Origin: a virus
Lineage: Duplodnaviria > Heunggongvirae > Uroviricota > Caudoviricetes
DNA: 21,957 bases
Virus record (IMG/VR): IMGVR_UViG_2606217100_000005
Strand: one strand, 5' to 3'
In this document: one piece after another, positions 2,719 to 21,918 of the stretch
Layout: every line of letters begins with the position of its first letter
Numbering within the stretch: the stretch's first letter is position 1
Program-made: the position numbers and the translations under genes
The notes under the pieces: generated by a model
What the model was told of the DNA's origin: nothing
Seen by the model: only the letters and a program-made list of their open reading frames with translations
The model's database searches: none

Positions 2719-3615
2719 CTATGACTTGCTGTTTTCAGTAAGAGTCTTATCATCCAAAGAATTTATTCTAGAAATTCTTTTTAACTCATTAAGATAATCA
2801 ACCTCGTTTTCTAAGAACCAATGAAGAACTTTAGAATTGCCAAGTAATTTATTAATATATGACTGGATTATAACGAATTTCAACATATCTGAACCATACT
2901 CGGTTTGAAGCTTTTTCGTTTCTTCCGAAGTTGTTGCCATTTCTTGTTCCAGACGAAGTATGGTTTTTTTTATGTCCTTTTTATAGGGAGTGTTTTTCCC
3001 TTTATTTACTATCATCGATGCCGGTGTTGCATCCAAGATGCTCATTGCAAATTTTTTACTATAATTATCAAAATTAATCATTGTACCGACTGCTTCAATT
3101 TGGCGAATTGGCTTCATTTTCCTCAAAACGTCAAATGTAGCCTTAGGTATAGGTTTATCAGAAAGTTTCGCAATTACACTTGAATCTATGCCGTTCATCA
3201 CATTCGCTTTATCTTTTATGGCATCAACAGATATGCCCAAAGCAGCACTAAGTTTTTCAATTGATACTTTTGCCAGAGACTTAATTATCATTCTATGTTC
3301 TTCAACTACATTTATATGATTCACTTGTTTGTTAGGAGTGAAAGCATCATCTATGCTCGAAAGTATACATGGAGCTTTTTCTATACCTAAGTCTTTTAAA
3401 GCCTCAACCCTTAAATGGCCATCAAGTATCTTAGTGACATCTTTATCTTTGTCATAGAATACTATTATTGGTTCAATAATACCTAAGCTTTCGATAGAGG
3501 TAACTATTTGATGATATTTATGGCTTCGCTTTACGTTTTCTAATAATTCCTTAGATGGAATTAACTTATTAGTTTCCAGGTAAATAAAATTATCGCCAAA
3601 ACGTATCTGAATCAT
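2719..3615 (-). CDS. ParB-like N-terminal domain protein (paralog B), 298 aa
   Basis: ORF with ATGA stop/start overlap to the upstream gene. Motif ...IIEPIIVFYD...KILDGHLRVEALKDLG... resembles the ParB/Spo0J N-domain arginine-finger box (GERRxRA / DGQHR-like). AT-rich codon usage. Confidence 0.7.
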   Translation of the reverse strand: MIQIRFGDNFIYLETNKLIPSKELLENVKRSHKYHQIVTSIESLGIIEPIIVFYDKDKDVTKILDGHLRVEALKDLGIEKAPCILSSIDDAFTPNKQVNHINVVEEHRMIIKSLAKVSIEKLSAALGISVDAIKDKANVMNGIDSSVIAKLSDKPIPKATFDVLRKMKPIRQIEAVGTMINFDNYSKKFAMSILDATPASMIVNKGKNTPYKKDIKKTILRLEQEMATTSEETKKLQTEYGSDMLKFVIIQSYINKLLGNSKVLHWFLENEVDYLNELKRISRINSLDDKTLTENSKS

Positions 3616-9385: not shown

Positions 9386-9411
9386 AAGCCACTTAAGTGG
9401 CTTTTTTTGTG
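9386..9411. terminator. Bidirectional intrinsic terminator (AAGCCACTTAAGTGGCTT + T-run)
   Basis: 18-bp palindrome followed by TTTTTGTG on the plus strand; the stop codon of the minus-strand int gene lies inside the stem. Confidence 0.7.
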
Positions 9412-10565
9412 ATATTGCTGGTCGTATTACCGTCATATTCCTTTAAATATGAACCATAATGACGAAATAACATTTCCGGCCCTTTATGCCCCATTTGAGC
9501 TGCAAGCCAAAACAGGTTTGCTCCCCGGCTGATATGGCGGGTGGCGAATGTATGCCTAGTTTGATATGGATTTCTGTAACGAATACCTGCTTTTCGCAAT
9601 GTTGGCACCCATGCTTTTTTCCTGATTGCATCAGCACTTGCCCAAGGCTTATTGGTCTTTGGATCTTCAAAGACAGTAGTATCCTTCATGAATGTAAATG
9701 GCTTCTGATTTATCAGCGCCAACATTGCCTCTTCTGTCAGTTCAACTTTCCGAGTACCTGCTTTTGTCTTTGTCCCTTTGATAACACCGACAACACTTGC
9801 GCTCTGGACATGGGCAGTTTTTCCAACAAAGTCGATATCACGCCATCGAAGGGCACATAATTCAGAACTACGCAGGCCTGTATGTATAGCGAACCGGAAC
9901 AGATTTTCCCATTGTTTGTTTCCGGCTGCTGCTAGTAATGCATCAACTTCTGCTGGTGATAGCGGATCAACTACGTAGCTGCTTTCTGCTTCTGACTTAT
10001 CACTTTGGTAGCGCGAAGCTGTTACTAACGATACGGGGTTAATTTGAAGTACCCCATCGGTCACGGCTTCATCAAGTGCTGACCGCAGGAAAGATAACTG
10101 GTTGCGAATTGTTTTTAAGGTCGTTTTCTGATTTTGAATCCACGCTTTCAGGGTTGCTGGTGTTAATTCACTTGCAGGGCAAATGTGAAGTGAGGCTAAC
10201 GCACTACGGCATTTTTTATAGCCACCAATCGTAGAGGGTGAAAGTTTTCTTGTTTCGCAGATTTCAAGATATTCGTCCAGGTACATCTTTACCGTTTTGC
10301 CTGCAGCAGCATTACCAAAAATTTTCAAACGAGCAGAACGGGGAAAATATTCTGCATAAATGAATGTTCCCCTTTCGATCTTATTATGGATTTCGCCGAG
10401 TGTACGCTCGGCGTATTTAATGTTCTTTGGTGTTACTTCCAGATTGGAAAGCGGCTCACGACATCTAACTCCTTTGTAGGTGAAAGTTATATTGATCGTT
10501 TCTCCCTGGCGGTGTTTCCTGATTGTTACGCCGCGCGGTAGTTTGAGCAGTTTTGTCTGGCCCAT
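9393..10565 (-). CDS. Tyrosine integrase, lambdoid type, 390 aa
   Basis: N-terminus MGQTKLLKLPRGVTIRKHRQGETINITFTYKGVRCRE (arm-binding domain of lambdoid integrases); C-terminal RHTFATRHISRGANLFWLAAQMGHKGPEMLFRHYGSY has the catalytic R/H/Y region. Confidence 0.85.
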   Translation of the reverse strand: MGQTKLLKLPRGVTIRKHRQGETINITFTYKGVRCREPLSNLEVTPKNIKYAERTLGEIHNKIERGTFIYAEYFPRSARLKIFGNAAAGKTVKMYLDEYLEICETRKLSPSTIGGYKKCRSALASLHICPASELTPATLKAWIQNQKTTLKTIRNQLSFLRSALDEAVTDGVLQINPVSLVTASRYQSDKSEAESSYVVDPLSPAEVDALLAAAGNKQWENLFRFAIHTGLRSSELCALRWRDIDFVGKTAHVQSASVVGVIKGTKTKAGTRKVELTEEAMLALINQKPFTFMKDTTVFEDPKTNKPWASADAIRKKAWVPTLRKAGIRYRNPYQTRHTFATRHISRGANLFWLAAQMGHKGPEMLFRHYGSYLKEYDGNTTSNITKKAT

Positions 10566-10771
10566 TTTGCAACCTCACTAAGATCAATCCACCTCTCCTT
10601 AACGCCTTCAACCTTTAAAACCTGAACACCTTCACGCCAAACACCGCGCTGTACACGTTTGTTTATTGCTTCAGGAGTTTCGCCAGTTTCTTTGCAATAA
10701 GTTGAGATAGGAACACAATCGAGGTTCAGCATACGTTTCTCCATTATCCCGTCTGCACACGGGAGCAACAT
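10526..10771 (-). CDS. Excisionase-like small DNA-binding protein; probable start at ATG 10732 (68 aa); overlaps int start by 40 nt
   Basis: Position and overlap with int are as in lambdoid xis-int pairs. GGAGAAA precedes the third in-frame ATG. Family assignment is by context and size, not a recognised motif. Confidence 0.5.
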   Translation of the reverse strand: MLLPCADGIMEKRMLNLDCVPISTYCKETGETPEAINKRVQRGVWREGVQVLKVEGVKERWIDLSEVAKWARQNCSNYRAA

Positions 10772-10773
10772 TA

Positions 10774-11640
10774 TTAACGAATAGTGTCGTTACTTTGAAG
10801 TACAGCAAATGCCATTAATACTTCTAAAGTATATCTTCTATAAAATTTAACAAAACCAACATAGAAAACATAGACGAAGAAAAAGCTAAGCATTATTGAA
10901 AGTAAACTATAAAGATAATCACTATGAGTACATAATCGATAAATAAAGGTTGGAACTGATACCCAAAATGAAATTATAAAGATTAAACATATGTTTCTGC
11001 AAAAACCATATAATGCAACATAGTTTTGAATTTTTGTTTGATGTTGTTTTGAAAACTCATAAACATAATGATATGCCAATCTGAAGAGATCATCATCAAG
11101 TCCGTTTTTATCTTGTAATAATTGGCGATTTGTTATGAACTTTTTCTCATAACCTTCTTTGATCATTAACCATGTTGTATTAGCTAAATGAAATGGTAGA
11201 GATTGAGAATAACATAGTTTTTGTGTTATAAAATCCCATAGTATTATTGGGCATAATACGCATTTGATTATGCGATTCTTTATTTTTGTTTTTTTATCAG
11301 CGCTTCTCTCATCGCATGATGGGCTACAAATGCTTTCTGAGGTATCTATCAATTTTTTAAATAGATATTTGGAAGGATATCCTAATTCTTTATTCATGTA
11401 TTTTTCGATAAAAAATGCTGACGTGATAGAAATAAAATGTCCAGCTATATAAGATATAATAACTATTGAAGCGTAGTTCAAAATGCCAAAGATTTGACTT
11501 TGACCTCTGAGCAATTCACTTAAGTCAATAACAATATCTAGATCGAATGTCAAACCACAGAAATACATTAATAGGATAAAAAAACCACCTGGTATTAAAT
11601 ATCCAAGAAAGTCATAGAATGAGAATGGATTTTGATTCAT
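10774..11640 (-). CDS. Polytopic membrane protein, 288 aa from ATG 11640 (ORF opens at TTG 11664)
   Basis: At least four hydrophobic helix-length segments (FLGYLIPGGFFILLMYFCGLTF, ILNYASIVIISYIAGHFISITSAFFI, ICLIFIISFWVSVPTFI, LLSIMLSFFFVYVFYVGFV). GGAGAG 5 nt upstream of the ATG. Strongly AT-rich compared with flanking prophage genes. Confidence 0.6.
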   Translation of the reverse strand: MNQNPFSFYDFLGYLIPGGFFILLMYFCGLTFDLDIVIDLSELLRGQSQIFGILNYASIVIISYIAGHFISITSAFFIEKYMNKELGYPSKYLFKKLIDTSESICSPSCDERSADKKTKIKNRIIKCVLCPIILWDFITQKLCYSQSLPFHLANTTWLMIKEGYEKKFITNRQLLQDKNGLDDDLFRLAYHYVYEFSKQHQTKIQNYVALYGFCRNICLIFIISFWVSVPTFIYRLCTHSDYLYSLLSIMLSFFFVYVFYVGFVKFYRRYTLEVLMAFAVLQSNDTIR

Positions 11641-11748
11641 TGTTGCTCTCCAATAATTTTTCAATTTGTAATATAACCTATATCTATATGTTAATAAATT
11701 ACTTATATGTTCTTTTATGGCAGAGTTTGAATTCGTACGTGCTGATTT

Positions 11749-12285
11749 TTACGACTCAGTTAACTCTTTAAAGCGTTCCATAAACATCCCATAGGTATGG
11801 CCTGGCGACAGTGGAATAACTTTGAACATCTCTGTTGCCGGGATACCTTCCAGTACGGGCCAGAAAGAGCCATCATCAAGCCCGAGATCGCGGCGTTCGG
11901 TTGCCAGCATGATGAGATCGGCATATTTCACGGGCGTACTCATAACCGGGGGTAACCCGTATTTCTCACGGATTACGGCGTCTATTTTTTCTTCCATCCG
12001 TTTATAGTCAGGAAGAAGGCGTTTCAGTGGAGCCGGGATGTCCTGGCAATACGCTTCTGTTGCATCATGCATTAACGCTTCAAAAGCAAATTCCTGCGGT
12101 ACCAGCTGGCTGCAAAGCACCGCATGTTGGGCGACGCTGTAGAAGTGTGAAAGATGGCCGGCAAAGCGACAGATATTTGAAAGGGAAACCGCGATATCGT
12201 TAATATCGATGTTGTCTTTATTTATCCTGTCATAATAAAAATGTTTCCCGGAAAAAGTTTTAATAAATGACATTTTGTTCTCCAC
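11749..12285 (-). CDS. yfdR: HD-domain phosphohydrolase, YfdR-like 5'-deoxynucleotidase; ATG at 12273, ORF opens at GTG 12285
   Basis: HD-domain residues (H...HAVL...MHDATEAY...D). Size and neighbourhood match the CPS-53 prophage yfdP-yfdQ-yfdR block as recalled. Confidence 0.65.
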   Translation of the reverse strand: MENKMSFIKTFSGKHFYYDRINKDNIDINDIAVSLSNICRFAGHLSHFYSVAQHAVLCSQLVPQEFAFEALMHDATEAYCQDIPAPLKRLLPDYKRMEEKIDAVIREKYGLPPVMSTPVKYADLIMLATERRDLGLDDGSFWPVLEGIPATEMFKVIPLSPGHTYGMFMERFKELTES

Positions 12286-12401: not shown

Positions 12402-13226
12402 TCAGGCGGTGAAAGTCCCAATAAAGGTTTCTACTTTGCTGTCCTTGAATTTCTCAACAAGCAGATCACGAAATTCGTTAGCCATATCTTCCTGCACCGC
12501 TTCCAGCTGAATAATGCGCAGAACCAGTACAGGACGATCGCCAGTGATAATGCTGAGGCGTAATTTAAACGGACGTTCTTTCAGACCTTCAAACGGAACG
12601 CATTTAAACTCAAATGCCACTGGCATAATGTCTTTGGTCTTCGCTTCGACAGACTCCATCAGGGAGCGTTTGCCGCTGAAGTCATTATCTTCAAAATCAG
12701 CAGTCTGGTTTGCTTCAATCGTGATTTTACGGACCGCCGCAGCCGCTTTTGTTGCCTGAATGGTGTCACCATTAGCATCAAAGCCCACAAGGTAGTCGGC
12801 CCAGTCTTCGATCCATTCTGCCAGTGACTTCTGGGAGTTACGCTCGCCGTTAACAGACAACAGAGCAGAGAACGGTGCTGTCTTTTTCAGTTTGAGAGTG
12901 GCAGTGTTATCTGCGTGACCTGGCTCATCAATAGTACCCAGGTTAAGCACACTGACGGCACGCATATTATCGGCATCGATAAAGCAGCGGGTGCCTTCAT
13001 CTGCAAGATCTTTAGAATAACGGGTAAAATCATCGATGCTGGCAGTGGAAAGTGCACCACGGAAACGGAAGCGATTTAAATTAAATTTTTCCAGATCATG
13101 AATGCGGAAATTCTCAGGCAATGCCACAGCATCGGCACCAATCTTACTGATAATTTCATTAACACCCTGAGCAGAAATAAGGGCATGGATTTGATTAATT
13201 GCGGTTGCGTCTAAGTTCTGAGACAT
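12402..13226 (-). CDS. yfdQ: Prophage early protein, YfdQ-like, 274 aa
   Basis: 274-aa ORF with GAGGA RBS, sitting between the YfdP-like and YfdR-like genes. Assignment is by size and synteny recall, not motif. Confidence 0.5.
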
Positions 13227-13291: not shown

Positions 13292-13654
13292 TTAACGACC
13301 TGCTGCGCGGAGTTTTCCGTCAGGTTCACCGGCAAGAGTCAGTAATTGTCCCTGGTCTTCCTGCAGAATAGTCAGGCGACCACCGCGATTGACATACATC
13401 GGCGTTTCGGTGGTGTCTTCTTCGGAAATTTTCCCGCGGTTAGTTGGGCGAACATATGAGAGTTTGTGTTTGATTTTCACACGGTTCTCATCAAACGGTT
13501 CGATTTCCAGATTGAGTGAGACCTTCCCTTTGGTTTTCGTGTTCATCACACCGGAAGCGACCTCACTGAGAACTGCGCCGATTTTGGTTTCAAATACGCC
13601 GCCGTCCAGCTCCCCGATAAATGCCTGCACATCAGTACTGCGTTCGCTAGCCAT
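13292..13654 (-). CDS. yfdP: Prophage early protein, YfdP-like, 120 aa (start at ATG 13654, not the 175-aa extended ORF)
   Basis: GAGGAG 8 nt upstream of the ATG at 13654. The upstream in-frame extension is low-complexity and crosses an inverted repeat. Confidence 0.5.
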   Translation of the reverse strand: MASERSTDVQAFIGELDGGVFETKIGAVLSEVASGVMNTKTKGKVSLNLEIEPFDENRVKIKHKLSYVRPTNRGKISEEDTTETPMYVNRGGRLTILQEDQGQLLTLAGEPDGKLRAAGR

Positions 13655-13703
13655 TTTGCTGCTCCTCATCATATCGACCCTGCAAGGTCGGTTGGTTTCT
13701 CCA

Positions 13704-13790
13704 CAAAACAGAGAAGAACACCTGCGGTGGCAGCCGCCCGGATGGATTGGGTTATGAGCCCGTCGTCCGGTGATGCTCTTCTCTGTTTTG
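13704..13790. repeat. 14-bp inverted repeat CAAAACAGAGAAGA / TCTTCTCTGTTTTG enclosing a 59-nt GC-rich segment
   Basis: Read directly at 13704-13717 and 13777-13790. Lies in an apparently non-coding GC-rich tract with no protein-like ORF in any frame. Confidence 0.8.
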
Positions 13791-13800
13791 CAAAAAAGGA

Positions 13801-13837
13801 CGGTACCAGCCGGAAGCAAGGGTACAAACTGGTACCG
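13801..13837. repeat. 9-bp inverted repeat CGGTACCAG / CTGGTACCG with 19-nt spacer
   Basis: Read directly at 13801-13809 and 13829-13837. Contains GGTACA, the motif repeated in the immunity-region operators. Confidence 0.8.
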
Positions 13838-14092
13838 CCAGGACTACACACAGCATAAAGTTGTGGTGCCGGGTGCCTCCCGGTGCCTGGCGAAGGTTGC
13901 ACACTAGGCGGGTGGGTATCCACAGAAGGTCGACTGTCAGCCTCAACCTTAACCCGCGTACGCTGAGCCGCATTCACCACAACGCTAAGGATTCTCTCTG
14001 GTTGAAAATACTTAGCTGTTATGTGCCTGTCTTTTCACCACTTCAGGCTCGGTGGTATCCTTTTAAGCCCGTATACATAAAAGGAAAATCAA

Positions 14093-14338
14093 ATGACTTT
14101 TGATGAAAAAGGACTTGATAATGCAATTAATAAAATCATCGTAACGTCGCTCTTTTCCTGTCTCAGCGACACTCAGCAGAAACAGTTCTACGAATCGGCT
14201 TTCAACATGATCGAGCGTTGTTGTTTCTGCGATGCCGACGAGTTACCTGAAAAAATCAGGAAACAGTTGGCTGATGCTCTTCGAGTGCGACTTTCTGACC
14301 AATTTTCTGAAATGTGCTCTCCGAATTTGGACAAATAG
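14093..14338 (+). CDS. Hypothetical small protein, 81 aa
   Basis: ATG with AAGGA 8 nt upstream; charged, helical-looking sequence. It is antisense to the PL-like operon and overlaps the 14256-14531 ORF by 83 nt, so one of the two may be spurious. Confidence 0.4.
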   Translation: MTFDEKGLDNAINKIIVTSLFSCLSDTQQKQFYESAFNMIERCCFCDADELPEKIRKQLADALRVRLSDQFSEMCSPNLDK

Positions 14339-14531: not shown

Positions 14532-14657
14532 TTCATACACCTGCTTTAACATGAGTGCCTAGTGGCACAACATGACTCAACGAATCATCCTGGACTTCAT
14601 ATGCCCCAAGCGGCTACTTCGTGGGCGTCCTGCCTGTTCGTTGTTTCTCTTGGGTAC

Positions 14658-14685
14658 ATTATGTATCTCAAAGGTACATTGTCAA
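14658..14685 (-). promoter_or_regulatory. Sigma70-type promoter (PL-like): -35 TTGACA, 16-nt spacer, -10 CATAAT, flanked by GGTACATT operator-like repeats at 14653 and 14673
   Basis: Minus-strand reading of 14680-14685 is TTGACA and of 14658-14663 is CATAAT. Sits immediately downstream of the cI terminator, as lambda PL/OL does. Confidence 0.55.
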
Positions 14686-14687
14686 GT

Positions 14688-14712
14688 ATAAAAAAACCTG
14701 CCGAAGCAGGTT
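14688..14712 (-). terminator. Intrinsic terminator after the cI-like gene (stem AACCUGC, UUCG loop, U7 tail)
   Basis: Plus strand AAAAAAACCTGCCGAAGCAGGTT; on the minus strand this is a 7-bp stem with UUCG tetraloop and a run of seven U, starting about 10 nt after the cI stop. Confidence 0.75.
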
Positions 14713-14724
14713 CATAAACATTGA

Positions 14725-15399
14725 TTAGGCTTTGATTTTGTATCTTCTTGGTTTTCCTGAGAAAATCACTGTACCAATTATAGAGCAATTACCGTTGATC
14801 TTAATGTAAGGCTCAGGCCAGTTTGGGTTTAACGCTTTGAGATAACGCTGTGTCCCATCTTCTATTAACCTTTTGAAGGTGGTTTCACCTGTATCGTGCA
14901 TCAATGCAATAACGTCGTCACCGTGGCAGGCAGGTACTTCAGGATCGACAAAAATCATGTCTCCCGGGCGGTACTCATCAATCATTGAATCACCTATCAC
15001 CCGCAAGATATAAGTCATTTCCCCACAGGGTACAGGGCAGGGATACGTTTCTGCTGTGCTCAAATCAACCTCAGAATATCCAACTTCTTTCCATGCTCCG
15101 GCCTGTACCCATGATATGACAGGGACTAATGTGATTTGTTTATTAGTGATTGAAACATCAGGTTTTTTTGTGATGTTCGTTGTCTGGTGTTCTTGATCGA
15201 GCCATCCGACAGGTAGGTCGAAACATTTTTCGATGTGTCGTGCCATGCTGTCACCGATATTTTTAGTAGCACCATCTCCCATAAACCTGCTGGTCTGGGT
15301 TGGCTCGCGATCAATCATAGTGGCAAAGGAAGAATTCCCGCCAACACCATCTCTCAGTTTTCTGGCGTTAGACCGCCGGATGTCATGGATTGTTTTCAT
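14725..15399 (-). CDS. CI-like prophage repressor, N-terminal HTH plus C-terminal S24 (LexA-type) peptidase domain, 224 aa
   Basis: C-terminal VIGDSMIDEYRPGDMIFVDPE...FKRL has the Ser/Lys dyad context of S24 autoproteases; divergent from a Cro-like gene. Confidence 0.85.
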   Translation of the reverse strand: MKTIHDIRRSNARKLRDGVGGNSSFATMIDREPTQTSRFMGDGATKNIGDSMARHIEKCFDLPVGWLDQEHQTTNITKKPDVSITNKQITLVPVISWVQAGAWKEVGYSEVDLSTAETYPCPVPCGEMTYILRVIGDSMIDEYRPGDMIFVDPEVPACHGDDVIALMHDTGETTFKRLIEDGTQRYLKALNPNWPEPYIKINGNCSIIGTVIFSGKPRRYKIKA

Positions 15400-15489
15400 A
15401 ACGAAATTAAAACCCTTGTACCGTTAAGGTACAAGTATCTTGAAGGTTCATTTCAATCATGTAATATGTACACCGGAGGTACATGTTGT
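15400..15489. promoter_or_regulatory. Divergent OR-like control region with a 21-bp palindrome CTTGTACC-GTTAA-GGTACAAG (15415-15435), candidate PR (-35 TTGAAG 15440-15445, -10 TAATAT 15462-15467) and candidate leaderless PRM
   Basis: Palindrome and GGTACA half-sites read directly (also GGTACATG at 15477). cro RBS GGAGG at 15475-15479. Promoter assignments are by consensus matching only. Confidence 0.5.
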
Positions 15490-15721: not shown

Positions 15722-16285
15722 ATGAGGCTAACCGTGGGTAAGCATCACTGGAAAGTAGAAAAACAGCCTGAGTGGTACGTGAAAGCTGTCAGAAAAACTA
15801 TCGCGGCGTTGCCGGGGGGTTACGCTGAAGCTGCTGAGTGGCTGGATGTAACAGAGAACGCTTTATTCAACCGCCTTCGTGCAGATGGCGATCAGATTTT
15901 CCCGCTGGGATGGGCAATGATTTTACAGCGCGCGGCTGGCACTCACTACATTGCGGATGCTGTCGCACAGTCTGCTGGTGGGGTGTTTGTATCGCTTCCT
16001 GAAATTGAGGAAGTAGAGAACGCCGATATAAACCAGCGCCTGCTGGAAGTCATCGAACAGATCGGGAATTACTCAAAGCAGATTCGTTCGGCAATCGAAG
16101 ATGGGGTCGTGGAGCCACACGAGCAGACAGCAATTAATGATGAGTTGTATCTGTCAATTTCGAAGCTCCAGGAGCATGCAGCACTGGTCTACAAAATCTT
16201 TTGCGCTCCAGAAAAGAGTGACGCCCGCGAGTGTGCAGCTCCGGGCGTCGTGGCGTTTTGTGTCTGTGGAGAAACTAACGCATGA
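15722..16285 (+). CDS. CII-like phage regulatory protein (CP76-like family), 187 aa
   Basis: Sits in the cII slot after cro. The segment LFNRLRADGDQIFPLGWAMILQRAAGTHYIADAVAQSAGGVFVSLPE resembles the phage CII regulatory family from memory. Stop overlaps the next ATG (ATGA). Confidence 0.5.
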   Translation: MRLTVGKHHWKVEKQPEWYVKAVRKTIAALPGGYAEAAEWLDVTENALFNRLRADGDQIFPLGWAMILQRAAGTHYIADAVAQSAGGVFVSLPEIEEVENADINQRLLEVIEQIGNYSKQIRSAIEDGVVEPHEQTAINDELYLSISKLQEHAALVYKIFCAPEKSDARECAAPGVVAFCVCGETNA

Positions 16286-16430
16286 ACAGTTTAACGGCAA
16301 ATAACCGTTTGTCGCAACAGCTGGTGGTCAGTGTCGCTGCACACCTGTTGTTACGGCATGAATGCAGATTACCAAATCACCTGGCTGTAAGTAACCACAG
16401 AGAACTTTACCTGACTGTGGGGGGCGAGTT

Positions 16431-16610
16431 GTGCAGGAACTTAACCGCTGGTTTCGTGACGGAAGAGGGCTTTATGTCCATGTTATTCGTTGGGAGCCAG
16501 AAACACAGCGCGTTATCTATCTTCGCAAAGACTACCCGCATGAGTGCTTTAGTCCTTTGTGGAAATTCAGGCGTGATTTTGTTGAGTGTGAAGGACCACC
16601 AGCACATTGA
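16431..16610 (+). CDS. Possible small Cys/His-containing protein, 59 aa from GTG
   Basis: Frame-3 translation VQELNRWFRDGRGLYVHVIRWEPETQRVIYLRKDYPHECFSPLWKFRRDFVECEGPPAH looks protein-like, with a GGGGGG run upstream as a possible SD. It is hidden inside a longer, less convincing 236-aa frame-1 ORF. Confidence 0.3.
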   Translation: MQELNRWFRDGRGLYVHVIRWEPETQRVIYLRKDYPHECFSPLWKFRRDFVECEGPPAH

Positions 16611-16915
16611 TTCTGCCATTCCGGGACGTTACACTGTTCAGGCACCTTATAAAGCGGGTGCCGGGATTGGCGTCCTGGAAATGTTATCGGCGATATATGA
16701 CGCGCCAGCGTCTTTTTTATCGTCTGCGTCTGCGCACACCCAAATTATGGTGGGCTGGACGGGGGCACCGAAAGGTGCGCCGGTTTCCGATAACGCCGGT
16801 TACGCCAACCCCGTTCAGTTCACCACCAGCGAAATTGGCGTTTCCGGTGGTGAAGGTAATTCACTGTTATCGGAGGCTGCCATCATGGCTACTGTCCCAG
16901 CCCTCACTCGTCTGA

Positions 16916-17395
16916 ATGATGAAGACTTACATAAACTCAGTTATTGCACCGCCAGATATTCCGGCAGGCTTCGTGGCTGTTTTCAACAGTGATGAGGCAT
17001 CGTGGCATCTCGTTGAAGATCATCGGGGTAAAACGGTTTATGACGTAGCGTCAGGGGACGCGTTATTTATTTCTGAACTCGGTCCGTTACCGGAAAATGT
17101 TACCTGGTTATCGCCGGAAGGGGAGTTTCAGAAGTGGAACGGCACAGCCTGGGTGAAAGATGCAGAAGCAGAAAAACTGTTCCGGATCCGGGAGGCGGAA
17201 GAAACAAAAAACAGCCTGATGCAGGTAGCCAGTGAGCATATTGCGCCACTTCAGGATGCTGTAGATCTGGAAATCGCAACGGAGGAAGAAACCTCATTGC
17301 TGGAAGCCTGGAAAAAGTATCGGGTGTTGCTGAACCGTGTTGATACATCAACTGCACCGGATATTGAGTGGCCAGAAGAACCAGACACCGTGTAA
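16916..17395 (+). CDS. Tail fibre assembly protein (lambda Tfa family), N-terminally shortened, 159 aa
   Basis: From [52 protein letters not shown]... to the end it closely follows lambda Tfa as recalled. The first 9 residues are unrelated and no tail fibre gene precedes it. Confidence 0.8.
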
Positions 17396-17404
17396 GCAAA
17401 AAAG

Positions 17405-17444
17405 AAAAACCGCAGACACGACGTATGCATGACGTGCTGCGGTT
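17405..17444. terminator. Bidirectional hairpin terminator between the tfa-like and GIY-YIG genes
   Basis: AACCGCAG...CTGCGGTT stem with an internal palindromic segment; A/T runs on both sides (AAAAAAGAAAAA upstream). Confidence 0.55.
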
Positions 17445-17464
17445 TATGCTTATCACTTAAAGAC

Positions 17465-18283
<819 letters not shown>

Positions 18284-18644
18284 TCATTGCAAGGGCTCAC
18301 AACCAGTAGTGTTGAGAAAACCATCGGAGAAATGAGGCTAAGCCTTTGAATTTACATAGTACAAAAAAGATACTTTTCCTCATAATGTGAGCTAATTTTA
18401 TGTTTCGTTTGATGATTGGACCGGTCTCGAAAACCGTAGACACATAGTATGCGTTAATTTATGAACAAACTACTTGTCTGCTGTTTTTCTGTCATTAGTC
18501 GTATATAGAATGATTCTCTATGCCTAACAAAGCATCACCAGTGCTAGATTACGTTGTAGTCACTGTTTAAATATCCAGATAAAACATTTCCTTCTGGGTT
18601 GAATGAGTGATAAAGTTTCACCCATTAGACCCCTTGGAGGAATT

Positions 18645-20078
18645 ATGTCTGAATTTGAAGTGTTGGCACAGCATCTGCTGAAGGAAGCCGAGGCGGAAGA
18701 AAAGCTGCGACAGGAAAATGATAAAAAGCTTATCGAGAAAGTGCTGGAAATCTATGATCAGAAGTATGTGGCTGAATTACTGAGAAAAGTCGGAAAAAAT
18801 GAGTGGAGCCGTGAAACCATTAACCGCTGGATTAATGGCAAGTGTTTACCAAAATCGTTGACTTCAGTAGAAGAGTCTCTTCTGCGTAAGATGCTACCAG
18901 AACCACCTGCAAACCATCCGGAATATGCTTTCCGCTTCATTGACTTATTTGCTGGAATTGGAGGGATACGGAAAGGTTTTGAGGCCATTGGAGGCCAGTG
19001 TGTTTTTACCAGTGAATGGAATAAAGATGCTGTGCGTACATACAAGGCCAACTGGTTTAACGATGAACAGGTGCATAAATTCAATCTCGATATTCGGGAA
19101 GTCACGCTGAGTGATAAAACCGATGTATTGGAAACGGATGCTTATGCATATATTGATGAGCATGTGCCGGATCATGATGTGCTTCTTGCGGGGTTCCCGT
19201 GCCAGCCATTTAGCCTTGCTGGTGTTAGTAAGAAAAACTCACTTGGTCGTGCGCATGGTTTTGAATGTGAAGCACAAGGAACACTTTTTTTTGACGTGGC
19301 ACGTATTATACGAGCAAAAAAACCGGCAATTTTTGTGCTGGAAAATGTCAAAAATCTGAAGAGCCATGATAAGGGTAAAACTTTCAAAGTCATTATGGAG
19401 ACCCTTGACGAGCTGGGCTACGAAGTTGCCGATGCTGCAGAAATGGGAAAAAACGATCCAAAGATTATCGATGGGAAGCATTTTTTGCCTCAGCATCGTG
19501 AACGCATTGTTCTGGTCGGATTTAGACGAGATCTGAATATTCACAAGGGGTTTACCTTGCGTGATATCAGTCGTTTTTATCCGGAACACCGCCCATCATT
19601 TGGTGAATTGCTGGAGCCTGTAGTCGACAGTAAATATATACTTACGCCAAAACTATGGGAGTACCTTTATAACTACGCCAAAAAGCATGCAGCCAAGGGG
19701 AATGGTTTTGGCTTTGGGTTGGTCAATCCTGAGAATAAGGAAAGCATTGCACGCACACTTTCTGCCAGATATCACAAAGACGGATCAGAAATTCTTATTG
19801 ATCGTGGTTGGGATATGGCAACGGGAGAGGCTGACTTTATGAATGAGAGTAATCAGGCTCGTCGACCACGCAGGCTGACTCCCCGAGAGTGCGCACGCCT
19901 TATGGGATTTGAAAAACCTGGAGGGAAACCATTCCGTATTCCGGTTTCAGATACTCAGTCATATCGGCAGTTCGGTAACTCAGTTGTGGTGCCAGTATTT
20001 GAAGCTGTTGCCAGACTTCTGGAACCCTATATCCTCAAAGCTGTTTCTGCTGATGCTGGTAAGACTGGGCAGCCTTGA
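18645..20078 (+). CDS. DNA (cytosine-5) methyltransferase, Dcm/M.EcoRII family (CCWGG-type), 477 aa from ATG 18645 (ORF opens at 18603)
   Basis: Motif [19 protein letters not shown], motif [19 protein letters not shown], and a C-terminal [10 protein letters not shown]; extensive similarity to E. coli Dcm as recalled. GGAGG 5 nt upstream of ATG 18645. Confidence 0.9.
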
Positions 20079-20112
20079 GAACATCTCCCGGCCTTTTAAG
20101 CCGGGAGTCAGC

Positions 20113-21327
20113 CTATGATAGTTCAGCGTAAAGCTCTATCAGCTCAGTAATGAATGCTCCGAGCGTTATTAATTCTTCTCTAACTGCTTCTGGGTATTTT
20201 TTATGTAAAGTTGATGGTACAACGAGTCTGACACCCGCATCTTTCATTTCTCGGTATTGTGCTGAAGAAACACCTTCTTGCAGTGTAAATAAATGTACCT
20301 GATGGATTTTATCTGCTTCATTCAGTATCTGACGCCAGCGATCTTTGCAGGTGGTCTTTACTGCCAGCATACGTAAGTTTTCTACAGGAAATTCAACGTT
20401 ATGATATGCCTCTGCTGAAGGAAACAGGAAATCTGGTTTTTTATTACCTTCAGTAACTGCCTGAGTGGAGAAATGCCGTAGTCCGTGCTCGATAAAAAGC
20501 TTCTCTAGGTGAAGTTCAAGTGATTTGCCTGCCCTTGATTTACGTCGATTACTGACAGAGTTGGCTAATGCAATAAACTCATCTACAGAATCGAATCCTT
20601 TCTTAATAATATCAAGAACATGTAATTCCTCGACGAGTAGAAAAATATCATACTCGACACGCCGACGGTCAATCAGTTGCTCATCTGGATCCTTGGAGTT
20701 TTTAGCATAATGGCCAGCAGCATATTGAATAATTTCGTTTCCAGAAGGAAAACGCTTCTTCCAGTCTTCAGGAATAACATATTTATGATTTACTGGAGTT
20801 TGCTGAAGAGACAATCCGCCCAAAATTTGTCCGGCAGGGCCGGAAATTAGGGTTCCAGGTATGATTTCGCCAATAGCAGACTCGATGATATCCTCTTCAT
20901 CGGGATTGACGCAGACCCATATATCTACCTCGGAACAGTCAGTGTTCTGTTCGTTTAACCTGAAAGCAAGAATTGTGAGGGCTCCTGTATTTTCAGGGTT
21001 CTGTAATGGACTTCCTCTCCCCCAGCGCGTAATTCTTTTTTCGTTTCGGGTCTTACCAAAATAACGGTTGTTGTAATAAATTGCGCGTGCTTGGGTATCA
21101 GGGCAATCATGGGATGATACATGCGCAGTAAGGAAGACTGAAGGGTTCAGTTCGCGAGTATGATTGATAGATGGAAAAAGCTTTTCAACGATATTTGAGG
21201 GGATATAAAGTCCGACCTGATGGCCACCTGTTGCGCCTGTGTCGTTTGCAGAAAGGCGTTTGATGTAGATAAAGTAATTCCCGCTTGCGATATCAAGCAG
21301 CCAGTTATGAAAAACCGACATATACAT
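20113..21327 (-). CDS. EcoRII-like type IIE restriction endonuclease, 402-404 aa
   Basis: Convergent with the Dcm-family methyltransferase; length and N-terminus (M)SVFHNWLL...YIKRLSANDTGATGGHQVGLYIPS match EcoRII as recalled. Confidence 0.75.
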   Translation of the reverse strand: MYMSVFHNWLLDIASGNYFIYIKRLSANDTGATGGHQVGLYIPSNIVEKLFPSINHTRELNPSVFLTAHVSSHDCPDTQARAIYYNNRYFGKTRNEKRITRWGRGSPLQNPENTGALTILAFRLNEQNTDCSEVDIWVCVNPDEEDIIESAIGEIIPGTLISGPAGQILGGLSLQQTPVNHKYVIPEDWKKRFPSGNEIIQYAAGHYAKNSKDPDEQLIDRRRVEYDIFLLVEELHVLDIIKKGFDSVDEFIALANSVSNRRKSRAGKSLELHLEKLFIEHGLRHFSTQAVTEGNKKPDFLFPSAEAYHNVEFPVENLRMLAVKTTCKDRWRQILNEADKIHQVHLFTLQEGVSSAQYREMKDAGVRLVVPSTLHKKYPEAVREELITLGAFITELIELYAELS

Positions 21328-21402
21328 CCCTTTGTTAACATACAGTCAGGGTTAACATTTTTCCATAGTTATAGATAAGCGGCTAGGAACTTAAGGGAAA
21401 AA

Positions 21403-21430
21403 CAAAAAGCCCGCATAAGCGGGCTTTTGT
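21403..21430 (-). terminator. Intrinsic terminator downstream of ssrA (minus strand), also insulating the restriction gene
   Basis: Plus strand AAAAAGCCCGCATAAGCGGGCTTTTGTG; on the minus strand stem AGCCCGC/GCGGGCU followed by UUUUUGUU. Same stem family as the terminator at 7664-7697. Confidence 0.65.
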
Positions 21431-21555
21431 GTCACTCGAGAGCCGCGGCTCCTTTGCGTATCCTTTTTTGTCTCCTCACCGTCTGGTCGGTGTCCTGCTG
21501 AGACTGCTAACTTCCTGTTTTTGTTGGTGTTGTCCTTACACCGTCCAATCATGAT

Positions 21556-21918
21556 TGGTGGAGCTGGCGGGAGTTGAACCCGCGTCCGAAATTCCTACAT
21601 CCTCGGTACTACATGCTTAGTCAGTCTTTACATTCGCTTGCCAGCTGCGGACGGACACGCCACTAACAAACTAGCCTGATTAAGTTTTAACGCTTCAACC
21701 CCAGGCAGGGCTTCCACGCGATCTCTTTTGGGTTTGACCTCTCTTGATCCCCGTCCTAAGAGCGGAGGCTAGGGAGAGAGGGCTCTAAGCAGGTTATTAA
21801 GCTGCTAAAGCGTAGTTTTCGTCGTTTGCGACTATTTTTTGCGGCTTTTTACGAGGCCAACCGCCCCTCGGCATGCACCTTGGGTTTCGCAAATCCCGTC
21901 GAATCCAGAATCAGCCCC
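21556..21918 (-). ncRNA. ssrA: tmRNA (SsrA), complete, 363 nt
   Basis: Reverse complement begins GGGGCTGATTCTGGATTCGACGGGATTTGCGAAACCC, contains the tag-peptide reading frame GCAAACGACGAAAACTACGCTTTAGCAGCTTAA (ANDENYALAA), and ends ...GGTTCAACTCCCGCCAGCTCCACCA; matches E. coli ssrA from memory. Confidence 0.97.

Follow-up and report, generated by a model that had tools for sequence, protein, structure and literature searches.

What is carried by the tract at positions 13655 to 14092 of the Caudoviricetes record IMGVR_UViG_2606217100_000005, a stretch of 21,957 nucleotides (nt; the window) that holds a truncated lambdoid prophage of the SfV/e14 type, ending as a stump? A reading made earlier from the letters alone (the sequence-only reading) had described the tract as GC-rich DNA with long inverted repeats and without a protein-like reading frame, and had offered as candidates a structured noncoding or regulatory RNA, perhaps an antitermination or processing site, or a decayed gene. 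In public annotation the same DNA is a protein gene, ymfH. Our analyses indicate that the minus strand of the tract very probably encodes a structured RNA that is conserved and belongs to the STnc100/PasD superfamily.

Results

The Tract Is a Relative of STnc100

A permissive Rfam scan of the tract, a check that the sequence-only reading had proposed, gave one significant match, to STnc100 (RF02076) on the minus strand. Positions 14013 to 13790 aligned with the full model (1 to 206) at 41.2 bits (E = 2.5e-7). The curated gathering cutoff of this family is 47 bits, and the tract, lying below it, is unlisted in a gathering-threshold scan of the window. A sub-threshold STnc100 match recurs at the equivalent position in four other phages, SfV, ST64B, phage 118970_sal3 (sal3), and Cronobacter phage phiES15. 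On the same model canonical copies score 73 to 131 bits, the small RNA (sRNA) PasD1 37.7 bits, and a Klebsiella copy 35 bits; one lineage, L284, passes the Rfam cutoff with 51.3 bits and is located 1.1 kb downstream of a Q antiterminator. The strands shared with STnc100, UGGUGAAU ... CACCGGGAGGCACCCGGCACCA, are found in the window at 13980-13972 and 13885-13864. With SfV, in which no gene is annotated here, the tract shares 98% identity, and with the e14 prophage of Escherichia coli K-12, in which it is annotated as YmfH, 90.6%; it is matched in 2,784 of 5,426 complete E. coli genomes.

The compositional and repeat features that had drawn attention to the tract were all recovered. Its GC content is 52.5%, compared to 41.9% for the whole window and 26 to 46% for adjacent intergenic stretches. 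A perfect inverted repeat of 14 base pairs (bp) lies exactly at 13704-13717/13777-13790, a length reached in none of 200 dinucleotide shuffles, and extends to 24-nt arms with 83% complementarity. The 9-bp repeat at 13801-13809/13829-13837, which by length alone is unremarkable (9 bp is attained in 22 of 200 shuffles), is conserved and covaries in relatives, and the small CCGGG...CCCGG hairpin is hairpin 4 of the core described below. The minus strand of 13640-14065 folds at −166 kcal/mol, with z = −4.3 relative to shuffles.

A Pseudoknotted Core Is Maintained by Compensatory Changes

Copies were collected by two pattern scans of viral contigs with longer gapped patterns, which returned 134 and 126 matches. 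The matches form two groups, the canonical STnc100 class (UGGUGAAU-CCCCC...) and the class of the window (UGGUGAAU-GCGGCU...), the latter represented by 37 distinct cores from about 10 lineages. Although the helix sequences are unrelated, every lineage can form the same set of helices (Table 1 gives those of the window). Specifically, H1 is elsewhere CGGGG/CCCCG, CGAC/GUCG, and others; H2 is AGACUGACAAA/UUUGUCAGUCU, CAGUUA/UAACUG, and others; and H3 is CCUGG/CCAGG, AUCGCA/UGCGAU, CUCUGG/CCAGAG, and others.

Because MAFFT alone misaligned the divergent helices, we built two covariance models of our own, R1 without H2 and R2 with H2, and counted pairs on the resulting alignments, in which about 10 lineages are represented by 36 distinct sequences. 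Of the cells, 93 to 94% pair, compared to at most 45% when the partners are slid by one to three columns. Changes on both sides of a pair were found in 4 of the 5 pairs of H1, in all 5 of H3, and in 5 of the 7 of H2, so that all three core helices covary, and the observed covariation score was reached by none of 500 shuffles. Alignments fitted to a model lean towards the modelled structure; the checks on this, the slid-partner controls and the raw lists of arms for each lineage, argue that the covariation signal is real. The closing helix P1 was fixed by the search patterns used to collect the copies, and it covaries in a Klebsiella phage found independently by BLAST, where it contains GCAGUG/CACUGC and is 17 bp long. 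The frequent G·U pairs fit a minus-strand RNA only, not the plus strand or DNA. In the copy of the window, H3 contains one A·C mismatch, and the first hairpin differs by a C-to-U change.

The 3′ strand of H2 pairs from within the loop of H3. We infer that this pseudoknot, which is absent from the Rfam STnc100 model, is common to the family. The structured RNA that the sequence-only reading had put forward as a candidate, and the folding and covariation analysis that it had suggested, are therefore borne out by a conserved structure with compensatory changes.

Table 1. Features of the tract and of the surrounding prophage, with positions in the window
Feature	Position	Strand	Sequence or remarks
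Tract	13655-14092		Between yfdP-like start (13654, minus) and 81-residue plus-strand open reading frame (14093)
Core RNA, ~130 nt	13988-13856	−	139 bits on our covariance model R1 (best copies 147)
Closing helix P1	13983-13975 with 13868-13860	−	GUUGUGGUG/CACCACAAC
First hairpin, Hp1	around 13971-13959	−	
H1	13956-13952 with 13913-13909	−	CGGGU/ACCCG
H2	13950-13944 with 13899-13893	−	AAGGUUG/CAACCUU; 3′ strand in H3 loop (pseudoknot)
H3	13908-13904 with 13890-13886	−	CCUAG/CCAGG
Hairpin 4	13883-13869	−	CCGGG-AGGCA-CCCGG; invariant
Linker, 14 nt	13855-13842	−	UGCUGUGUGUAGUC; single-stranded, directly 5′ of terminator
Intrinsic terminator	13839-13792	−	GGCGGUACCAG, 19-nt loop, CUGGUACCGUCC, U6; 11-bp stem corresponding to the 9-bp repeat
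Imperfect hairpin, ~30 bp	13797-13698	−	Centre is the 14-bp repeat; consensus fold with compensatory and G·U pairs
Small hairpin	13692-13673	−	CGACC-UUGCAG-GGUCG; yfdP leader
Ribosome-binding site of yfdP	13667-13662	−	GAGGAG; ahead of yfdP start 13654
5′ hairpin P0	13984-14016	−	GCUAAGUAUUUUC/GAGAAUCCUUAGC; inverted repeat, in minimum-energy fold
Conserved island, 46 nt	14016-14061	either	~95% identity in Klebsiella phages with unrelated flanks
Integrase	9393-10565		
Probable excisionase	10526-10771		
yfdQ	12402-13226	−	Pfam DUF2303; SfV orf31
yfdP-like gene	13292-13654	−	phrog_204; SfV orf32; first delayed-early gene past the terminator
81-residue open reading frame	14093-14338	+	Full-length phrog_3311 match; position of e14 ymfI (by position only)
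orf33/YmfJ-like, 98 residues	14256-14552	−	Full-length phrog_3195 match; SfV orf33, e14 ymfJ
PL-like early-left promoter	14685-14658	−	TTGACA-16-CATAAT; promoter scan, 11/12 consensus matches
cI terminator	14713-14694	−	Directly upstream of PL-like promoter
cI-like repressor	14725-15399	−	S24 peptidase
cro, CII-like gene, Ash gene, tail-fibre assembly fragment, EcoRII restriction-modification system, tmRNA			Right of the repressor

A Linker, an Intrinsic Terminator, and a Long Hairpin Follow the Core

The linker UGCUGUGUGUAGUC is kept in the SfV/e14, ST64B, phiES15, and phiNP lineages and occurs as variants in lineages D and E, while the adjoining terminator stems change; it is a candidate seed for base pairing. 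The element behind it is a G+C-rich hairpin directly followed by a run of U on the transcribed strand, as expected of an intrinsic terminator, and was missed by a simple scanner because of its 19-nt loop. Its stem shows compensatory changes in 4 of 9 pairs, a U-run follows the stem in every lineage that has the element, and unrelated canonical terminators occupy the same spot in phiES15 and lineage D.

The ~30-bp imperfect hairpin begins within this terminator: at its base, the terminator U-tract plus ACA pairs with the conserved UGUGGAGA. In lineage E a counterpart of this hairpin is built from unrelated sequence and likewise ends in GUGUGGAGA, and the whole series of downstream elements is repeated there in unrelated sequence. 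The ~30-bp hairpin is likely an RNase III-type processing site in read-through transcripts. For GUGUGGAGA we also considered a ribosome-binding site or a boxA-like motif, but pairing with the terminator U-tract accounts for it better. The stem of the small hairpin in the yfdP leader covaries as well, being GGCGG/CCGCC in ST64B and, with the loop unchanged, GGGCGG-UUGCAG-CCGCCC in lineage E. The antitermination or processing role that had been suggested for the tract thus has a partly matching anatomy, the 9-bp repeat being a terminator stem and the 14-bp repeat the centre of a ~30-bp hairpin, and the roles themselves are putative.

The 5′ Flank Contains a Variable Hairpin and a Conserved Island

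On its 5′ side the core is preceded by P0, which can be extended by CAUAAC/GUUGUG, an extension that competes with outer P1. The arms of P0 are unrelated yet pair in ST64B (AUAAGAGUU/AACUCUUAU), sal3 (GAUGAGAGUAUU/AAUGCUCUCAUC), and phiES15 (GAAGCGCAUU/AAUGCGCUUC). The P0 of some relatives encloses an insert of ~100 nt; those of sal3 (L004, ~2830-2930) and phiNP (L006) contain two minus-strand hairpins that resemble T-loops, CUGG-UUCGAUU-CCAG and GUCCG-UUCAAUU-CGGAC. With ARAGORN, neither the tract nor the inserts within P0 of its relatives gave a tRNA- or transfer-messenger RNA (tmRNA)-like element. Upstream of P0, ST64B (L003, ~2880-2925, minus strand) has one more hairpin that looks like a terminator, CUGGCGG...CCGCCAG with UUUUU behind it, which leaves its RNA between two such elements.

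Read on the minus strand, the conserved island gives a hairpin, GCCUG...CAGGC, and then ACAUAACAG (ACAYAAC); the stem becomes GCCGG/CCGGC in L330 and L304. By eye, the plus strand offers a possible promoter, TTCACC-16-TATCCT, for the 81-residue open reading frame (ORF), and on the minus strand CTGAAG-17-CATAAC may be a weak promoter, from which the RNA would begin at the foot of P0.

The RNA Lies in the Early-Left Operon

The PL-like promoter, a strong one overlapped by GGTACA-type operators (GGTACA copies at 14653 and 14673), lies upstream of the tract on the same strand. This places the tract inside the early-left (PL) operon, after the operon's first gene, the small orf33/YmfJ-like ORF, and means that the RNA is to be read on the minus strand. 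The PL-like promoter is the most likely source of transcripts through the tract. The plus-strand 81-residue ORF, which has a ribosome-binding site (AAGGA) 8 nt ahead of its ATG, is crossed in antisense by early-left transcripts; it and the orf33/YmfJ-like gene are convergent, overlap by 83 nt, and are both real small genes.

Related copies occupy the same place downstream of a cI-like repressor gene in SfV, e14, ST64B, mEp460, phiES15, and a Klebsiella phage. A cI-like repressor gene (helix-turn-helix plus S24 peptidase; helix-turn-helix only in phiES15) is the closest same-strand neighbour upstream in lineages A, B, C, E, and G, and in L314 a PL-like promoter lies only ~40 nt before P0. mEp460 has a more divergent core at the same spot, followed by an identical terminator module. 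The genes downstream are yfdP/yfdQ, kil (phiES15, Klebsiella), or xis-int (e14). The e14 ymfH region was reported to be induced by DNA damage (azidothymidine) together with ymfJ, xisE, and intE (PMC11228462).

Two other arrangements were seen. In Klebsiella phage ST405-OXA48phi1.2 (L346, 1654-1798, minus strand) the core, which has the 17-bp P1 with compensatory changes noted above, lacks both P0 and a terminator and stands directly ahead of a ribosome-binding site, beyond which are two very small ORFs and kil. Tandem arrays of three to six STnc100-type cores, ~250 to 400 nt apart on one strand, occur in some viral contigs (L134, 2321-3356; L181, 4375-5464 and 8374-8520; L143, 368-993; L149, 1721-2346).

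Comparison with Known RNAs

STnc100 is a prophage sRNA of Salmonella and E. coli, seen on northern blots in enterohemorrhagic E. coli (PMC5331693), and its usual place is the late region downstream of stx2 (PMC12370729). The tract shares with it the closing helix UGGUGAAU ... CACCGGGAGGCACCCGGCACCA and the CCGGG-AGGCA-CCCGG hairpin, a pseudoknot in which a helix pairs into the 3′-hairpin loop (read also in canonical copies), a linker with a 3′ intrinsic terminator, and residence in a lambdoid prophage. It differs in its first hairpin, GCGGCUNAGCGCA instead of CCCCC-UGUGCGG-AGGGG, in the extra helix H1, formed by CGCGGG, and in its place in the early-left operon behind the repressor, whereas STnc100 is late, after Q or stx (PMC12370729; bioRxiv 10.64898/2026.05.13.724894).

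PasD1 and PasD2 (EcOnc13) of enteropathogenic E. coli are detected by northern blot, depend on Hfq, have many mRNA interactions, and carry their seed just 5′ of the terminator (PMC8550237); PasD and STnc100 have been proposed to share an ancestor (bioRxiv 10.64898/2026.05.13.724894). The PasD1 sequence that we examined (NC_011601, 1060260-1060432) has its own promoter, a 5′ end at P1, the pseudoknot with H2 in the H3 loop, and the seed directly 5′ of the terminator. PasD1 and the tract stand at a similar distance from the STnc100 model (37.7 and 41.2 bits) and share P1 and the H2/H3 topology, and the candidate seed UGCUGUGUGUAGUC takes the place of the PasD seed UGUGAG directly 5′ of the terminator. 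In contrast, PasD lies downstream of the Q antiterminator by the lysis genes (PasD1 between antiterminator and holin) and the tract between orf33/cI and yfdP; PasD lacks the CCGGG...CCCGG hairpin; its seed and its terminator, CUGCGCAUGGCGCGG, differ from UGCUGUGUGUAGUC and the GGCGGUACCAG terminator of the window; and model R1 scores PasD1 at only 17.8 bits.

Two further early-left RNAs resemble the tract in context. Lambda PreS (LPR1) is an Hfq-bound early-left sRNA whose 3′ end is tL2a and whose synthesis is confined to the lytic cycle (bioRxiv 10.1101/2024.10.31.621285). Like it, the tract RNA is on the PL strand within the early-left operon, with an internal intrinsic terminator and U-tail at its 3′ end and the same context in relatives; PreS is made on induction and not in the lysogen, and DNA damage likewise induces the tract in its e14 copy. 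PreS, however, is 68 to 88 nt long and lacks a large structured domain, and its Hfq binding and targets are known; a search of lambda 32500-36000 with model R1 gave no match, so there is no homology to PreS. The put RNAs of HK022 are likewise structured, lie early in the PL operon ahead of terminators, and have no conserved N-like gene adjacent, but put is ~70 nt, consists of two stem-loops, and directly follows its promoter (PMC9378689), whereas the tract RNA is ~130 nt plus flanks, is pseudoknotted, lies ~640 nt from PL, and has relatives that accumulate as terminated RNAs. No model match to the put regions was found in HK022 20000-32000. Resemblances to boxA/boxB (nut), ops, and put proved to be short chance similarities, and neither lambda nor HK022 gave a model match.

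Intercistronic RNase III processing hairpins are familiar from the lambda N leader and sib and from the early mRNA sites of T7. The ~30-bp imperfect duplex is like these in lying between cistrons of an early operon, and unlike them in that its base pairs with the U-tract of the preceding terminator; its cleavage is putative.

The family itself is thus already known, and the tract is not a new kind of element. What is new is a below-threshold subfamily annotated as protein, its early-left location, the family-wide pseudoknot, and the linked module of terminator and hairpin.

Discussion

A Proposed Pathway for the Tract RNA

With slightly more confidence than doubt, we propose that the tract yields an Hfq-type sRNA from early-left transcripts that stop at the terminator, with a processing hairpin behind it. 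Inactivation of the cI-like repressor would let transcripts from the PL-like promoter run leftward through orf33 into the tract, where the core would fold cotranscriptionally. A large share of these transcripts would stop at 13839-13792, releasing the RNA as the 3′ end of the immediate-early leftward transcript. The released end, with seed, hairpin, and U-tail, would have the layout of an Hfq-dependent sRNA, as in PasD and lambda PreS. The terminator would also limit entry into the delayed-early genes, which are yfdP/yfdQ here and kil or xis-int in relatives. Read-through RNA would fold the ~30-bp hairpin, and a probable RNase III-type cut would separate the sRNA from the yfdP message. What the analysis establishes is the covarying fold, its strand and position, its homology, and the lack of a conserved protein frame; Hfq binding, targets in trans, and the efficiency of the terminator are predictions, and the 5′ end of the RNA would come either from PL read-through or from the weak candidate promoter in the island.

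Several observations weigh against this proposal. A sigma-70 promoter scan found none in the island or next to the RNA at 9/12 matches; canonical relatives have a promoter immediately before P1, in many copies the promoter-like TTGACA-17-TAAATT. A search of the window for the complement of UGCUGUGUGUAGUC found only its own site and no target. The long loop of the terminator (19 nt, and at least 40 nt in ST64B) may weaken termination. A conserved pseudoknot with invariant loops exceeds the needs of a simple base-pairing sRNA, and in L284, L287, and the Klebsiella L346 the core stands directly before a ribosome-binding site and gene, without a terminator, a layout like that of a cis-acting leader. 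Finally, shuffle tests of the three-helix parse in single sequences were weak (p about 0.01-0.25); support for the fold therefore rests on the comparison across lineages.

A Possible Cis-Acting Role in the Nascent Transcript

Some of these points would be natural if the core worked mainly in cis, gating harmful early genes downstream from within the nascent early-left transcript, whether by antitermination like that of put or by serving as an aptamer or attenuator. The short terminated STnc100 and PasD RNAs would then be by-products. We regard this as the most serious competitor, though still an unlikely one. The order of promoter, structured RNA, terminator, and early genes matches put and riboswitch designs, with L314 placing the RNA ~40 nt after a promoter-like site; kil (phiES15, Klebsiella) and xis-int (e14) are among the genes downstream; the L284, L287, and L346 cores that abut a ribosome-binding site fit as well; no N-like protein is conserved beside the RNA; with its pseudoknot and its invariant unpaired stretches, the core looks like a fold that binds a ligand or a protein; and an upstream CAAC vies with the 3′ strand of P1 for the GUUG of its 5′ strand. 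However, inspection by eye found no alternative pairing between core and terminator stem that is consistent across lineages. Many canonical relatives look stand-alone, with a promoter-like sequence upstream and a terminator downstream, and northern blots show discrete RNAs for canonical STnc100 and for PasD, so that the terminator evidently works in these relatives. The HK022 put regions share no sequence or model similarity with the tract, and PasD engages in Hfq-dependent interactions in trans. The cis-acting and sRNA readings are not exclusive.

Extended to the whole family, the idea becomes that the invariant pseudoknotted core of the tract RNA, STnc100, and PasD is a cis device (an aptamer, or a binder of RNA polymerase or of a factor) gating transcription or translation of the genes behind it, which we consider a long shot, somewhat less probable still. 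If true, the gated genes would be kil, xis-int, and yfdP in early-left operons and esterase and lysis genes in late operons, and the short "sRNAs" would be the terminated output of a put- or riboswitch-like class present in thousands of enterobacterial prophages and studied only as "sRNAs".

Improbable Readings: DNA Sites, Protein YmfH, or a Decayed Gene

It is highly improbable that the inverted repeats are sites at the DNA level, whether extra operators of the cI-like repressor (GGTACA) or a recombination or replication site. GGTACA is indeed enriched in the window (15 found against 6.1 expected), and the terminator hairpin holds one GGTACA and two GGTACC. The sequence-only reading had spoken of GGTACA copies in the tract, like the operators; the plural was overstated. 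The tract has a lone GGTACA (13821-13826) besides the two GGTACC, its spacing and orientation are unlike those of the operator palindromes at 15415-15435 and 15465-15483, and the excess sits in the immunity region, 14653-15483. The link to operators also fails on mEp460, which pairs a different repressor with the same GGTACC terminator hairpin. Stems at the same place are unrelated in ST64B, phiES15, and lineage E, and many of the conserved G·U pairs would be A·C mismatches in DNA or on the other strand.

The annotated protein is hardly more credible. A 103-residue ORF (13669-13980, minus strand) is present in the window and in K-12 e14; RefSeq lists it as a hypothetical protein, or as YmfH in K-12 strains, and the Prokaryotic Genome Annotation Pipeline (PGAP) so annotates it in many genomes. 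Against PHROG, the ORFs of the tract give partial matches only, of 23 to 36 residues. The frame, however, is not maintained. In SfV, at 98% DNA identity, a 1-nt deletion in a T-run removes its C-terminal part; K-12 YmfH is frameshifted over the middle third relative to the frame of the window; other frames replace it in ST64B and sal3; and phiES15 has no ORF that long. These breaks occur between DNA copies that are 90 to 98% identical, and single-base indels ignore the frame, while RNA pairing is what substitutions preserve. In agreement with the sequence-only reading, which had noted only low-complexity frames rich in R, P, and S, no ORF of the tract matches a Pfam family and no frame is conserved in relatives.

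The annotated e14 ymfH ORF (L002, 4002-4313, minus strand) begins exactly at the P1 strand GUGGUGAAU. A published screen listed prophage genes that trigger the retron-Sen2 toxin RcaT when overexpressed, ymfH being one of them (bioRxiv 10.1101/2020.06.22.160242); given where the ORF starts, the active product of that clone may be RNA and not protein.

Nor does a decayed gene or functionless spacer, for which the truncated prophage and the H3 mismatch and Hp1 variant of the window copy might speak, have any appreciable likelihood, since the tract is matched in so many complete E. coli genomes (2,784 of 5,426), keeps its position in the inducible phages SfV, ST64B, mEp460, and phiES15, lacks a Pfam homologue in every frame, and tolerates frameshifting 1-nt indels while compensatory change keeps its RNA structure across about 10 lineages.

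Other Features of the Window

To the right of the repressor, the Rfam family isrK (63.7 bits, 16642-16718, plus strand) adjoins a C4 antisense RNA (82.8 bits, 16743-16830, plus strand) inside the Ash-family ORF at 16282-16992, a pair that looks like an immI-like antirepressor control module. SfV and mEp460 have the pair in their loci as well; in ST64B, whose locus stops right behind isrK, isrK alone is seen. The Rfam family IS009 (229.5 bits, 17154-17352, plus strand) lies entirely within the tail-fibre assembly ORF at 16916-17395 (Pfam Caudo_TAP), and this "sRNA" family may simply be coding sequence. Here the prophage is reduced to a stump. The stretch behind Ash (16916-21918) carries the tail-fibre assembly fragment and after it, in order, genes for a GIY-YIG protein (at 17465-18238), for a Dcm-type methylase (at 18603-20078), and for the EcoRII endonuclease (at 20113-21327), with tmRNA last (21556-21918, minus strand); the 404-residue ORF beside ssrA is the restriction enzyme and not an integrase. 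At the other end, an AT-rich island (10774-11750, GC 27 to 31%) carries a 296-residue ORF (10774-11664, minus strand) with no Pfam match. It lies between the probable excisionase ORF and a nucleotidase gene, where SfV carries other genes, and may be an inserted accessory or defence gene.

Implications

With the tract, the STnc100/PasD family reaches beyond the late region into the early-left operon, and a widespread "hypothetical protein", including the K-12 e14 gene ymfH (b1142), is reassigned to a structured RNA. For K-12 e14, SfV, and ST64B we predict a DNA damage-induced RNA that ends at 13797-13792, with the seed UGCUGUGUGUAGUC and an RNase III site behind the terminator. If the unit of terminator and RNA controls entry into kil, xis-int, and yfdP, it would explain delayed-early timing in lambdoid phages that have no conserved adjacent N-like gene.

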